DNA from: an uncultured virus (IMG/VR IMGVR_UViG_3300028299_000005)
Lineage: Duplodnaviria > Heunggongvirae > Uroviricota > Caudoviricetes
Virus record (IMG/VR): IMGVR_UViG_3300028299_000005
Direction: 5' to 3' (one strand)
DNA length: 20,000 nucleotides
The notes below the pieces were generated by a model that did no database searches, was not told where the DNA came from, and worked only from the letters and a program-made list of their open reading frames with translations. Positions 2,477 to 19,940 of this stretch are shown piece after piece (positions within the stretch are counted from its first letter, which is position 1; every line of letters begins with the position of its first letter). Position numbers and translations under genes: made by a program.

Positions 2477-2904
2477 ATTGTTTCTCTAATTATATTTATT
2501 GTTGTATTCAGTGCTCTTTCAATATTTTGTGTATCTTTGTCTTTTTCTTCCTCTTCCATGGTTAACAAATCAACCGCTGGGATTTCTAAAAGAGGAATAG
2601 TTTCTGGAAAACCCGTTTTAGGTTTTGTTATAATGGTAGCAACAGTACTCTTCGGTTTTTTAGTCCAACCCCAATATGCTGCCTGACTATAATAAGACTC
2701 AAGATAAGCAAGTCTTCTAGCCGCTTTTTTTGCTGTTGCAAAACAAACAGGACAATCCATAACTACTTTTAGGGTAGGTTTTGAATCAGTGTAGATTCTA
2801 TCAACTTTATGAATAGAGAGGCCACAAACTGTTTTTTCTTTTAGAGATGTTTTTGTTGATATCTTATGTAAAATTTTGCCATTTGGCACTACCAAATATT
2901 TCAT
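2461..2904 (-). CDS. hypothetical protein, possible Zn-binding N-terminus
   Basis: H..C G L..CPVC pattern; ATG at 2904 with GGAG upstream (track start 2919). Confidence 0.7.
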   Translation of the reverse strand: MKYLVVPNGKILHKISTKTSLKEKTVCGLSIHKVDRIYTDSKPTLKVVMDCPVCFATAKKAARRLAYLESYYSQAAYWGWTKKPKSTVATIITKPKTGFPETIPLLEIPAVDLLTMEEEEKDKDTQNIERALNTTINIIRETICQKI

Positions 2905-8535: not shown

Positions 8536-8995
8536 TTACTTATCCTTTGGTGGTTGATTTTTAAAACAATTATCTTCTCTACAAATACAACCATCTAATC
8601 CTGATAGTAACATTCTTCTGTGGCTACATTCGATATTCCCGTTTATATTCATTTTAAGTTTGCACTTCTTTTGAATTTTTATAAATGTCTTATTCTTTGG
8701 TGAGTCACTTTCTAAATTTTGCCAATTTCGAGAATAATTTCTATAATCATCTATAATTGGTTTATCCTTCTTACTCCTTACAAGTTTTAAATCCTTGCTC
8801 AATTTATTATCAATATCTATTTCTTTATCTTTTGGTACGAAAAACCTCATTAATCCAATTTTTAATTCAAGTTTTTTCTTTTCTTTCGCACATTCTTTGA
8901 TGATTGCTTGTTTGTATTCGTCTAAATCATTAACCATTTCCAATTTGCAACGCCATCCTGTATACTTACTTGCAATTTCTTCTTTTTTTTTTCAT
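8536..8995 (-). CDS. hypothetical protein carrying the LDx..IIKECAK module; frameshift in A10 run after ATG
   Basis: ATG at 8995 overlaps upstream TGA; A10 (8983-8992) shifts it out of frame with track ORF 8536..8943, A9 restores the frame. Confidence 0.65.
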
Positions 8996-9186
8996 TGCTT
9001 ATTCTTTAAAACTTCTTTTAATTTTCTATAACTATGATAGTATTTACTTAACATTTCGATACAATCTTTTTTGGCTTTAGCATTATCAAGTTTTGTATCA
9101 AGATTGCAAGTATGAATTAGCAGAAAATATAATGCCAACCAAACAAAAACCCCTACTTCGCCACCATCGTATTTACATTCTGTCAT
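8992..9186 (-). CDS. small protein with N-terminal TM segment (64 aa)
   Basis: AGGAG SD; hydrophobic VGVFVWLALYFLLI. Confidence 0.7.
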   Translation of the reverse strand: MTECKYDGGEVGVFVWLALYFLLIHTCNLDTKLDNAKAKKDCIEMLSKYYHSYRKLKEVLKNKQ

Positions 9187-9267: not shown

Positions 9268-9480
9268 TTACTTGTCCTTTAAGTTTAAAACATCAAGACA
9301 ATATTTGTAAGGTCTTCCGCTGGACTTACTCCATTTCTTCGCACATTCTTTGATGATTGAGTTTTCTAATTGGTCTAAACTTTCTTCAATCGAATGTTCT
9401 AAATTCTCAATGCTAATATTAGCATTCCCATAATTGTGAATTTCTAACATTATATCATTAAGTGTTTTTTCTTTCATCAT
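9268..9480 (-). CDS. hypothetical protein with LDQLENSIIKECAK module (70 aa)
   Basis: ORF track; GAGGA SD. Confidence 0.75.
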   Translation of the reverse strand: MMKEKTLNDIMLEIHNYGNANISIENLEHSIEESLDQLENSIIKECAKKWSKSSGRPYKYCLDVLNLKDK

Positions 9481-9543
9481 ATTTATCCTCTTAAATTATT
9501 TTACAATTTCTCTTGCAAATGTAATTTTTGTTACAGTAATATT

Positions 9544-9657
9544 CACCACCGTAGCCACTTTGGTTTAGGTATTCGAAATACGTACTACTTGCGCTATCAC
9601 GCTCTTTGGTAGTATGAAAACGTTAAAGGGCAGGGCTATTTAGTCCTGCCCTTTTTT
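9544..9657 (+). ncRNA. putative small RNA partly complementary to the downstream allo-tRNA
   Basis: Hairpins with plus-strand G-U pairs, ending in a terminator; 9544-9556 pairs 11/13 with 9668-9680 and 9568-9578 pairs 11/11 with 9726-9736. Confidence 0.55.
9625..9657 (+). terminator. intrinsic terminator (possibly bidirectional)
   Basis: GGGCAGGGCT-ATTT-AGTCCTGCCC followed by T6; the G-U pair works only on the plus strand. Confidence 0.8.
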
Positions 9658-9661
9658 ATTT

Positions 9662-9746
9662 GGAGGGGGCAACCGTGGTGGTTTACGGCTCCGGCCGATA
9701 ACCGGATGAACGTCAAATGACGTGGTTTCGAATACCGCTCCCTCCG
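9662..9746 (+). tRNA. allo-tRNA (9/3 cloverleaf), Ser-like body, anticodon GAU
   Basis: 9-bp acceptor GGAGGGGGC/GCTCCCTCC; 6-bp D stem CCGTGG/TTACGG with TGGT loop; anticodon stem TCCGG/CCGGA with loop CC-GAT-AA; V arm ACGTC/GACGT; 3-bp T stem GGT/ACC with TTCGAAT; G discriminator; no encoded CCA. Confidence 0.85.
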
Positions 9747-9835
9747 CTTTTTATAAATTGTTGCTTAGTCATAATGTTATTACTTCTTTATATGATACAA
9801 TTAAAAATTGTAATGTAAATCAGTATCTTTAATTA

Positions 9836-10234
9836 TTATTCCTCCTTTAGGTTTTTATGGTAATTATCAAATCCATTTATTATTTCTAACATTAAATTCA
9901 TAGTATTATGGGATATTATGTTTCCTGAATGACTTTTATTGTCTCCGTCAAAGTGTTCAGATTGTATGTTCCTAAAAATTTCTAATTTATATTCAGTATC
10001 AAAATCTAAATCAATCATTTTTTTCGCACATTTTTCAATGATTGATTGTTTATATTGGTCTAAAGTCAATGCCTTTTGTCCGATAGTTAATTCTTTATAT
10101 CCCAATATTTTTATTCCACAAAGAAATCCTTGTTTATCATAGTCAAGATAAACTCCATAATCAACTCTATCAATTTCAGTTGTTTTGTCTATTTCTCCAT
10201 CACTTAGTTTTATATAAATTGGTTTCTTATTCAT
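9836..10234 (-). CDS. DUF2283-like N-terminal domain fused to LDQYKQSIIEKCAK module
   Basis: YIKLSDGEIDKTTEI...VYLDYDKQGFLCGIKIL resembles DUF2283. Confidence 0.65.
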   Translation of the reverse strand: MNKKPIYIKLSDGEIDKTTEIDRVDYGVYLDYDKQGFLCGIKILGYKELTIGQKALTLDQYKQSIIEKCAKKMIDLDFDTEYKLEIFRNIQSEHFDGDNKSHSGNIISHNTMNLMLEIINGFDNYHKNLKEE

Positions 10235-10773: not shown

Positions 10774-11085
10774 TTATCCTTTATTCTTTAGATGTATGAT
10801 TGCTTCTTTCATGGCTAAATTCCAAAATAATCTACCACAATAACCGCTAATTGTAGTTCTTAAATGTTCGTCGGGAATTGCCATTACGTACTCTTTTGTT
10901 GTCATTGGAAAAACCGATTCAGGATATGGATTTTGGATTTCTTGTATATCTTTAACACATTCTTCGATTATGCTTTGTTCTAATTGGTCTAATCTTTCTC
11001 TAACATACTTACAATTATCATAATAACTATTTCCATTGCTTAACATCATTGACGCTAAGTCCACTATTATTTCTTTCTTATTCAT
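10774..11085 (-). CDS. hypothetical protein with LDQLEQSIIEEC module and NPYPESVF motif
   Basis: ORF track; GGAG SD; ATGA overlap. Confidence 0.8.
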   Translation of the reverse strand: MNKKEIIVDLASMMLSNGNSYYDNCKYVRERLDQLEQSIIEECVKDIQEIQNPYPESVFPMTTKEYVMAIPDEHLRTTISGYCGRLFWNLAMKEAIIHLKNKG

Positions 11086-12272: not shown

Positions 12273-12336
12273 CAGGATAATCCTACTACTTGACTTTGTA
12301 GGAATGTTTGATTCATACGAGTTCACTCTATCCTGC
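12272..12336 (-). other. repeated structured motif, copy 1 (RNA junction or micropeptide MNQTFLQSQV...)
   Basis: Stems GCAGGATA/TATCCTGC and TCCTAC/GTAGGA; 12286-12316 is 29/31 identical to 14117-14147. Confidence 0.55.
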
Positions 12337-14108: not shown

Positions 14109-14164
14109 GGAAAACCCTACTTGACTTAGTAAGAATGTTTGATTCATGCATGTTCGTTTTTTCC
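14109..14164 (-). other. repeated structured motif, copy 2
   Basis: Stems GGAAAA/TTTTCC and TCTTAC/GTAGGG; core matches 12286-12316. Confidence 0.5.
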
Positions 14165-19565: not shown

Positions 19566-19820
19566 TTTGCTCTATTTGTGCGATTAATTTATTTTCTTGT
19601 GACTTGATAGGGCCGCACATTTTAATCCCCAGCCACACTAAGTTAAGTCTTTTTTTTAGTTAAAAGGCGCCATATAAGTATACCGAATCGCTTTGCGATA
19701 GCTTGTGGTCTTAAATTGGCGACTGTACGTTTGCATTCCTGTTAAAATTTGGTGGGTAATGGTACCCTATAATGTAGTTGTTTTAAGGCATTTGTGGGTA
19801 ATTATAATGCAAATATTGTC

Positions 19821-19884
19821 TTATAGGCAGTTATAGGCAGTTATAGGCAGTTATAGGCAGTTATAGGCAGTTATAGATAGGCAG
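19821..19884. repeat. tandem repeat (TTATAGGCAG)x5 plus one variant copy
   Basis: Exact 10-bp units at 19821-19870, then TTATAGATAGGCAG. Confidence 0.95.
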
Positions 19885-19940
19885 TGCTTGTAAAGTTTGC
19901 AGTTGCAGTCAAAAACGTTTTTTTTCTCGTCGGTTAAACT

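Follow-up and report, generated by a model that had tools for sequence, protein, structure and literature searches.

We analyzed a 20,000-nucleotide stretch (hereafter, the window) of an uncultured virus of the class Caudoviricetes, IMG/VR record IMGVR_UViG_3300028299_000005, and found that positions 9662-9746 of its plus strand hold a gene for a structurally complete transfer RNA (tRNA) of unusual build. On comparison with known sequences, the gene appears to be a real new member of the (9/3) allo-tRNAs, carried by a phage, and its new point is a hybrid serine/isoleucine make-up. The acceptor end, the discriminator base G73 and the long variable arm resemble those of serine tRNAs, selenocysteine tRNAs and allo-tRNAs, and the anticodon arm, which bears the isoleucine anticodon GAU, resembles that of phage tRNA-Ile. 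The best single explanation is that of an intact allo-tRNA that would be charged with serine and would insert it at AUC and AUU codons. This reading is plausible but unproven, and we give it a probability of about 40%.

Structure, strand and detection of the gene

We built the cloverleaf by hand and obtained standard base pairs at 28 of 28 positions, three of them G-U. Its parts, in the order of the sequence, are the following:

9662..9746, plus strand: whole (9/3) allo-tRNA-like gene, 85 nucleotides (nt), no encoded CCA
9662..9670, plus strand: 5' strand of the acceptor stem, GGAGGGGGC, forming 9 base pairs (bp) with 9737-9745
9671-9672, plus strand: linker AA between acceptor stem and D arm
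9673..9688, plus strand: D arm CCGUGG-UGGU-UUACGG, 6 bp (9673-9678 with 9683-9688) including two G-U, UGGU tetraloop
9690..9706, plus strand: anticodon arm UCCGG-CCGAUAA-CCGGA, 5 bp (9690-9694 with 9702-9706)
9707..9723, plus strand: variable region, UGA and then ACGUC-AAAU-GACGU, a 5-bp Watson-Crick stem (9710-9714 with 9719-9723) with AAAU loop
9724..9736, plus strand: T arm GGU-UUCGAAU-ACC, 3 bp (9724-9726 with 9734-9736), loop UUCGAAU
9737..9746, plus strand: 3' strand of the acceptor stem, GCUCCCUCC (9737-9745 paired), and discriminator G73 at 9746

The acceptor stem opens with G1-C72, G2-C71 and A3-U70 and contains a single G-U pair (9668-9739). One C joins the D arm to the anticodon arm, whose loop CCGAUAA places C33 at 9696 and GAU at 9697-9699, followed by A37 and A38, with C29-G41 in the stem. 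The stem of the variable arm has no bulge, and the bases 3' of G73 are a C and five T (9747-9752) rather than CCA. The GC content of the element is 0.60, compared to 0.31 for the window. An earlier reading of the sequence alone (hereafter, the original prediction) had described this structure, and each of its structural features was found where it had been placed, including GAU at 9697-9699 and the C at 9696.

The fold is far from what chance would produce. When its 85 letters were shuffled 200,000 times, the best result reached 22 of the 28 pairs in the 9/3 geometry. The energy of the 9/3 fold (-40.1 kcal/mol) nearly equals the unconstrained minimum (-40.5 kcal/mol, z = -3.9), while the alternative 8/4 and 7/5 folds (-34.6 and -33.7 kcal/mol) are worse by 5.5 and 6.4 kcal/mol, respectively, and a D stem of 4 bp instead of 6 reduces the stability to -38.0 kcal/mol. 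We also wrote a 9/3 descriptor by hand. It tolerates one mismatch in the 9-bp acceptor stem and none in the 6-bp D stem, which must close a 4-nt loop, and it asks for an anticodon stem of 5 bp and for a TTCRA loop on a T stem of 3 bp. When both strands of the window were scanned, the descriptor matched once. Across the fetched loci (937,837 bases) it returned six matches, all six of them phage allo-tRNA-Ser genes, and it gave no false match in the approximately 790 kb of loci chosen without a tRNA pattern.

The gene lies on the plus strand, as the original prediction had proposed. The minus-strand mirror image keeps 25 of the 28 pairs, because the three G-U pairs turn into C-A, and folds less well (-35.4 kcal/mol, z = -3.5). 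The consensus of the T loop and D loop is legible on the plus strand alone, and a model built from the element as a single sequence (R1) scores 115.9 bits on the plus strand and 10.6 bits on the minus strand. Similarly, when positions 9655-9755 were searched, the Rfam tRNA model matched only the plus strand (22.9 bits, E-value 0.0046 for this small search).

That score is below the 29-bit gathering score of the family. At the normal threshold the Rfam model found no tRNA, it found none on a 291-nt stretch at E-values up to 10, and ARAGORN returned no tRNA gene for the window. The expectation that standard finders would miss the gene was therefore correct, and a canonical 7/5 tRNA-Ile(GAU) cloverleaf that these programs could recognize is not what the sequence contains.

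Relationship to allo-tRNAs and to phage tRNA-Ile

The segment lengths of the gene (9, 2, 6, 4, 6, 1, 5, 7, 5, arm, 3, 7, 3, 9, 1) coincide with those in the published (9/3) rows for CAG, CCU and UCU, read by eye in the supplement of PMC5389517, so that the likeness is one of architecture. The source given there for the UCU row is a marine viral metagenome. The allo-tRNA assignment of the original prediction, made with reference to Mukai et al. (Nucleic Acids Res 2017, PMC5389517), was borne out at the level of architecture. As in the (9/3) allo-tRNAs of that paper, the 12-bp acceptor branch is split 9/3 and followed by a 2-nt linker, the D stem has 6 bp and a tetraloop, the anticodon stem has 5 bp, the variable arm is long and the discriminator is G73. 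The long D stem with tetraloop, which resembles that of tRNA-Sec, is described as a feature of the group (PMC5389517), membership of which also involves a long variable arm and a G73 or U73 discriminator, and the window gene has both. Like published members, it is missed by ARAGORN. The differences concern the anticodon arm and the surroundings. Reported 9/3 anticodons serve AGA/AGG, four Leu codons and UAA (PMC5389517). In the portion of that paper's supplementary table covered by the comparison, GAU occurs as a codon only and never as an anticodon, and five substrings of the gene, 7 to 10 letters long, are all absent. The window gene also stands apart by its C33, its isoleucine-type anticodon arm and its setting in an AT-rich lake phage.

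The most similar sequences that we found are the phage allo-tRNA-Ser(GCU) genes, the "(8/4) tRNA-Ser" of phage tRNA clusters (PMC5389517), which share with the window gene the GGAG start, the AA linker, the UGGU D loop, G73 and the long arm (loci L077, L089, L095, L098, L100, L101, L107, L109, L120 and L121). ARAGORN missed all three of those checked (L077, L095 and L098). Outside the window, model R1 scores highest on L098, a gene of a phage tRNA array (47 bits, 60 of 85 positions identical). However, the anticodon of these genes is a serine one, their position 33 is U, most of them encode CCA, and they lie in tRNA arrays. They also carry a mismatch at the eighth acceptor pair and two extra bases before the T stem. 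In contrast, the window gene combines a perfect 9/3 branch with a non-serine anticodon and occurs alone.

We searched for relatives in phage records, IMG/VR, and metagenome and genome contigs and found neither a close nor a distant homologue. Neither blastn of 9300-10100 nor megablast of the entire window matched a phage record, an exact 22-mer had no occurrence in IMG/VR, and a neighbouring protein had no relatives there. Model R1 found no match in 39 loci around relatives of the phage's DHH phosphoesterase (30-50% identity), where its best scores were 18-26 bits on ordinary-looking tRNA-like stretches, and the element was present in none of the whole records of the five closest relatives. 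We then relied on a pattern of the common design (GGAG..AA..TGGT..CYNNNAA..TTCRA..CTCC). It returned one locus in IMG/VR and 48 loci in metagenome contigs, with the anticodons UCA (28), GCU (10), UGA (5), CGA (2) and others (3) according to our own parsing. Serine anticodons number 17 among the 48, or 18 with L106, which ARAGORN calls tRNA-Ser(UGA). In genome loci, no match to the pattern had A or T at position 35. None of these collections contains the contig of the window. Judged by these matches, the window gene is the only one seen in the GGAG/AA/UGGU design with an anticodon of neither serine nor selenocysteine; its GAU is unlike both the UCA of tRNA-Sec and the NGA or GCU of tRNA-Ser. 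Two of the design-pattern loci, L078 and L108, have no ARAGORN tRNA call. Nor does L116, where a tRNA-Sec-like element with UCA anticodon and a C33 loop (CCUCAAA) lies at 2501-2591 (plus strand) of a metagenome contig with 38% GC. Two further 73-nt tRNA-like sequences without ARAGORN call, L015 15594-15666 and L039 9806-9878 (plus strand), lie in a phage tRNA array and score 25.7 bits with the model.

The anticodon arm is of the isoleucine type. Its 13-nt core, CGG-CCGAUAA-CCG, is identical in a normal tRNA-Ile(GAU) of a phage tRNA array (L076), which was the one tRNA among the 37 IMG/VR loci returned by the loop pattern CCGATAA, the others looking like chance matches. When the core was combined with the T loop, the scan of IMG/VR yielded 12 loci, and in 10 of these ARAGORN calls a tRNA-Ile(gat), mostly within arrays (L126, L127, L129, L130, L131, L133, L134, L135, L136 and L137). 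In contigs representing one genome per species, the C33 pattern occurred at 71 loci, approximately the number estimated for chance, and 10 of the 71 were called tRNA-Ile(gat), mostly in dense arrays (L262, L263, L266, L276, L284, L293, L314, L317, L321 and L325). The U33 form of the same arm is found in at least 120 IMG/VR loci, compared to 12 with C33, and is thus at least 10 times commoner. C33 is therefore a minority but recurrent variant of the phage tRNA-Ile(GAU) arm.

Outside the shared core, which includes C32, C33, A37 and A38 (L126, L127, L129, L130, L131, L133, L134 and L137), these tRNA-Ile genes differ from the window gene: they are called by ARAGORN, most measure 74 to 77 nt and lie in arrays, and none fits the 9/3 model well (best scores 31 to 32 bits). 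The eight different sequences that we compared all have A73, and at least seven of the eight encode CCA. Two of the loci, L131 (385-470, minus strand) and L133 (372-457, plus strand), hold an 86-nt phage tRNA (GAU, C33, A73) with a D arm like that of tRNA-Ser or tRNA-Leu and a small additional hairpin within the variable region, which makes it a second kind of long-armed tRNA with isoleucine anticodon.

In Escherichia coli, G34, A35, U36, A37 and A38 together with C29-G41 are determinants for isoleucyl-tRNA synthetase (IleRS), an enzyme that relies on the anticodon loop. All of these are present in the window gene, and A73 is replaced by G at 9746. The original prediction had described a serine-type body with an isoleucine (GAU) anticodon. 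Body and anticodon both stand, while the isoleucine type of the whole anticodon arm had been overlooked, and with it charging by IleRS becomes a serious rival.

The original prediction had also considered that C33 could be a sequencing error. Position 9696 is covered by contigs of four public runs, two from RNA libraries (X2 and X4) and two from DNA (X3 and X7), and all four agree over the entire element; the only contig differences listed are at 10051-10058 in X3. Although contigs drop rare variants and the samples are possibly not independent, this agreement excludes an error of a single assembly. Nor is C33 a sign of decay, as normal tRNA-Ile(GAU) genes of phages show it repeatedly. In yeast tRNA-Leu(GAG), the C33 form is nearly as active as the U33 form (PMC13492127), and by analogy C33 need not stop decoding. 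The tRNA-Ser(CAG) of Candida offers another parallel, as it is a serine-type tRNA that reads the codon of a hydrophobic residue and has a base other than U at position 33. Its G33 is described as a rare exception to U33 (PMC5041475) and is said to lower the efficiency of decoding (PMC13492127). Unlike the window gene, it is eukaryotic, chromosomal and of canonical 7/5 shape, and it belongs to a fixed codon reassignment, whereas AUY (AUU and AUC) stays isoleucine in the window.

Codon meaning, phage setting and expression signals

The meaning of AUY in the phage was derived from its own genes. The 52 minus-strand open reading frames (ORFs) that we retained from a set of 86, leaving out overlapping short plus-strand ORFs, comprise 5438 codons, among them ATT 224 times, ATC 36 times and ATA 214 times. 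We aligned the DHH gene with 24 homologues (24 of the 39 loci, after skipping rows that looked like near-duplicates). At its 16 ATT/ATC codons the homologues have isoleucine in 37%, valine in 16%, leucine in 7% and serine in 5% of cases, compared to 32% serine at its serine codons. As the residues at ATY are mostly I, V or L, we rejected a changed code in which AUY means serine. The code is standard at AUY, and serine insertion by the tRNA would therefore be mistranslation, as the original prediction had it, and would affect the phage's own proteins as well.

The 52 minus-strand ORFs fill the window, and the tRNA gene lies on the opposite strand. Seven of the 52 ORFs match PHROGs at E-values up to 1e-5, including the DHH phosphoesterase and a radical SAM protein, and seven match Pfam at E-values up to 0.01, with five exceeding the curated cut-off. 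Both the phage-like character of the gene array and the orientation of the tRNA against the protein genes agree with what had been proposed. When the DHH protein was compared with phage records by tblastn, all matches were distant and mixed. The stretch is contained in 11 public runs from 11 studies, all of lake water metagenomes and all from 2019, possibly from one campaign; the window itself may derive from one of them.

The tRNA gene occupies a 355-nt gap separating two small genes. The features around it are the following:

9268..9480, minus strand: flanking small ORF, 70 amino acids, one of four paralogues
9568..9578, plus strand: 11-nt stretch, perfect complement of the T loop and 3' T stem (9726-9736), 147 nt upstream of them
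9625..9660, plus strand: terminator-like hairpin, 13 pairs (7 G-C), then the T run UUUUUUAUUU, ending one base before the 5' end of the tRNA
9836..10234, minus strand: flanking ORF, 132 amino acids, paralogue, with an N-terminal DUF2283 match (30.7 bits, cut-off 23)

The four paralogous small genes (8536-8943, 9268-9480, 9836-10234 and 10774-11085, all on the minus strand) have a common motif near LDQYKQSIIKECAKK, and the tRNA gene lies between the second and the third. DUF2283 may have a link to antitoxins. The sole printed description of this family that we found, in PMC4755241, concerns the regulators FseA and QseM of an integrative and conjugative element. We considered the direct repeats 9440-9455 and 9882-9897 as the scar of an insertion and rejected this explanation, because the flanking genes are paralogues, which accounts better for the repeats. 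Right after the stop of the ORF at 9836-10234 lies a 36-nt AT-rich stretch (9799-9834). In each of the four runs it is found again, with five differences, in other contigs of higher abundance (X7 reaching a depth of 75), and it may be a shared regulatory motif; it also overlaps a promoter-like site of the minus strand. Elsewhere in the window, a 48-nt direct repeat with 81% identity (12286-12333 and 14117-14164) occupies two intergenic gaps and is possibly regulatory, and a tandem array of about seven copies of the 10-nt unit TTATAGGCAG lies near the window end (19811-19886).

The hairpin at 9625-9660 is the strongest terminator-like site of the window, on the same strand as the tRNA, and has partial matches to Rfam models of the terminator type. 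The 11-nt complement of the T arm is improbable by chance: it was reached in 5 of 3000 shuffles and in none of 540 other 144-nt windows of the 20 kb. The whole region 9545-9760 (plus strand) folds with z = -5.3. We also considered a second tRNA-like gene at 9500-9625, which was rejected as Rfam gave no tRNA match at E-values up to 10. With a terminator upstream, no nearby promoter and C33 for U33, the output of functional tRNA is probably low. As a conjecture, the gene is perhaps expressed only through read-through, which would fit a harmful product.

Proposed role and alternatives

In the reading that we favour, the RNA would be cut from a longer transcript, with RNase P generating the 5' end at G9662, a trimming enzyme the 3' end, and a host enzyme adding CCA. 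Seryl-tRNA synthetase (SerRS) binds the long variable arm of its tRNAs and ignores the anticodon. The acceptor end (G1-C72, G2-C71, A3-U70, G73) and the unbulged long variable arm would make the RNA a substrate of this enzyme, and its GAU anticodon would read AUC and AUU, with serine in place of isoleucine. An alanine identity is not expected, since the third pair is A3-U70 and not G3:U70. In agreement with this mechanism, (9/3) allo-tRNAs are reported to have a "strong intrinsic affinity" for SerRS that is abolished by a bulge in the variable stem (PMC7590224), and allo-tRNAs with leucine anticodons inserted serine at leucine codons and stopped the growth of E. coli (PMC5389517). Based on the comparison with phage tRNA-Ile, G73 rather than A73 argues for serine over isoleucine. 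Charging would thus be mainly with serine, but some with isoleucine is likely as well given the type of the anticodon arm, and the product may then be a tRNA of dual identity.

Several observations speak against a serine-inserting tRNA. AUU and AUC make up 260 of the 5438 codons of the phage (4.8%), so that an active serine inserter would damage its own proteins. IleRS may compete, since ordinary tRNA-Ile genes have the same anticodon arm. There is no convincing promoter on the plus strand: the nearest listed site (9104-9133) is weak, and the strongest terminator ends one base before G1, which leaves no room for a promoter. The contigs of the RNA libraries (X2 and X4) span the region and reveal neither strand nor transcription. 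In the collections searched, no homologue was found that could supply covariation for the fold. A derivative of a (9/3) allo-tRNA was reported to cause ribosome disassembly during translocation in E. coli (PMC9561287). The SerRS identity rules applied to the acceptor stem are those of E. coli, which need not be the host of the phage.

Four other explanations have to be weighed against serine charging. The gene could be a working isoleucine tRNA with an unusual body, charged by IleRS through the anticodon loop, that supplements AUU/AUC decoding or replaces a host tRNA-Ile cut by a nuclease; C33 and the odd body would then give resistance to the host defence nuclease. We regard this as rather unlikely, even though its core is that of the tRNA-Ile(GAU) genes called by ARAGORN (10 of 12 viral and 10 of 71 genome loci), ATT ranks with the most frequent codons (224 of 5438), AUY retains its isoleucine meaning, and changes borne by phage tRNAs in the anticodon loop have been proposed to evade host anticodon nucleases (PMC10264068). 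Against an isoleucine tRNA stand G73, compared to A73 in eight of eight tRNA-Ile sequences, and the serine type of acceptor end and long arm, to which SerRS would still be expected to bind (PMC7590224). The gene also lies alone, outside any tRNA array, and lacks the CCA that at least seven of the eight tRNA-Ile genes encode. The RNA could instead be tRNA-shaped without decoding. It might regulate, divert a synthetase or a tRNA-cutting defence enzyme as a decoy, or signal processing, possibly together with the upstream leader and its complement of the T arm. In E. coli, none of six variants tested from the abundant allo-tRNA(UAU) group showed suppression, and the authors proposed non-translational roles (PMC5389517). 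C33 in place of U33, the terminator directly upstream, the improbability of the complement at 9568-9578 and the strong fold of 9545-9760 (z = -5.3) are also consistent with such a role. However, all stems are as intact as in decoding tRNAs, and so are the T loop, the D loop with its GG and the 7-nt anticodon loop with A37 and A38. C33 is also known from a yeast tRNA that works and from tRNAs that lie in normal arrays. We regard a non-decoding RNA as improbable.

Lower still is the chance of a silent passenger, that is, an unexpressed recent arrival or a decaying gene, for example an allo-tRNA-Ser(GCU) with the changes U33C and C35A. The missing promoter, the terminator abutting the 5' end and the lack of relatives in the collections searched would fit, and the closest model match, L098, is a Ser(GCU) gene whose anticodon loop differs at two positions. 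Yet the 28 pairs contain no mismatch, although decay would reach the stems, and the sequence is identical across four samples. Moreover, the anticodon stem is also unlike that of allo-tRNA-Ser and matches the tRNA-Ile type, which two point mutations do not explain. Finally, there is very little reason to expect that the functional RNA is on the minus strand, as part of a 3' or 5' untranslated region of the flanking genes or as a compound terminator. All protein genes are on that strand, a promoter-like site lies at 9819-9792 (minus strand), the hairpin is possibly bidirectional, and the minus strand folds well (z = -3.5). Nevertheless, this strand keeps 25 of 28 pairs and reaches -35.4 compared to -40.5 kcal/mol, its model score is 10.6 compared to 115.9 bits, and only the plus strand shows the consensus of the T and D loops and a match to the Rfam tRNA model.

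An extension of the serine reading, which we consider speculative and on balance doubtful, is that the tRNA is deliberately ambiguous, an AUC/AUU reader charged with serine or with both serine and isoleucine. It would be kept scarce by read-through of the terminator, with C33 tuning decoding or recognition by IleRS, and Ile-to-Ser mistranslation would serve the phage as a tool. If this is true, the tRNA may disturb host proteins or act like a toxin, and it would parallel the Candida CUG tRNA in a virus.

No natural tRNAs are clearer candidates for breaking the codon table than allo-tRNAs, which also provide a chassis for the engineered insertion of selenocysteine and non-canonical amino acids. 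The gene described here is phage-borne and structurally perfect. As a natural Ser/Ile hybrid, it offers a simple test of which synthetase wins, and its C33 ties it to the recurrent, unexplained C33 variant of ordinary phage tRNA-Ile. If the tRNA accepts isoleucine, a 9/3 body would be able to serve as a normal elongator tRNA. If it places serine at codons for isoleucine, it would be a mistranslator encoded by a virus.

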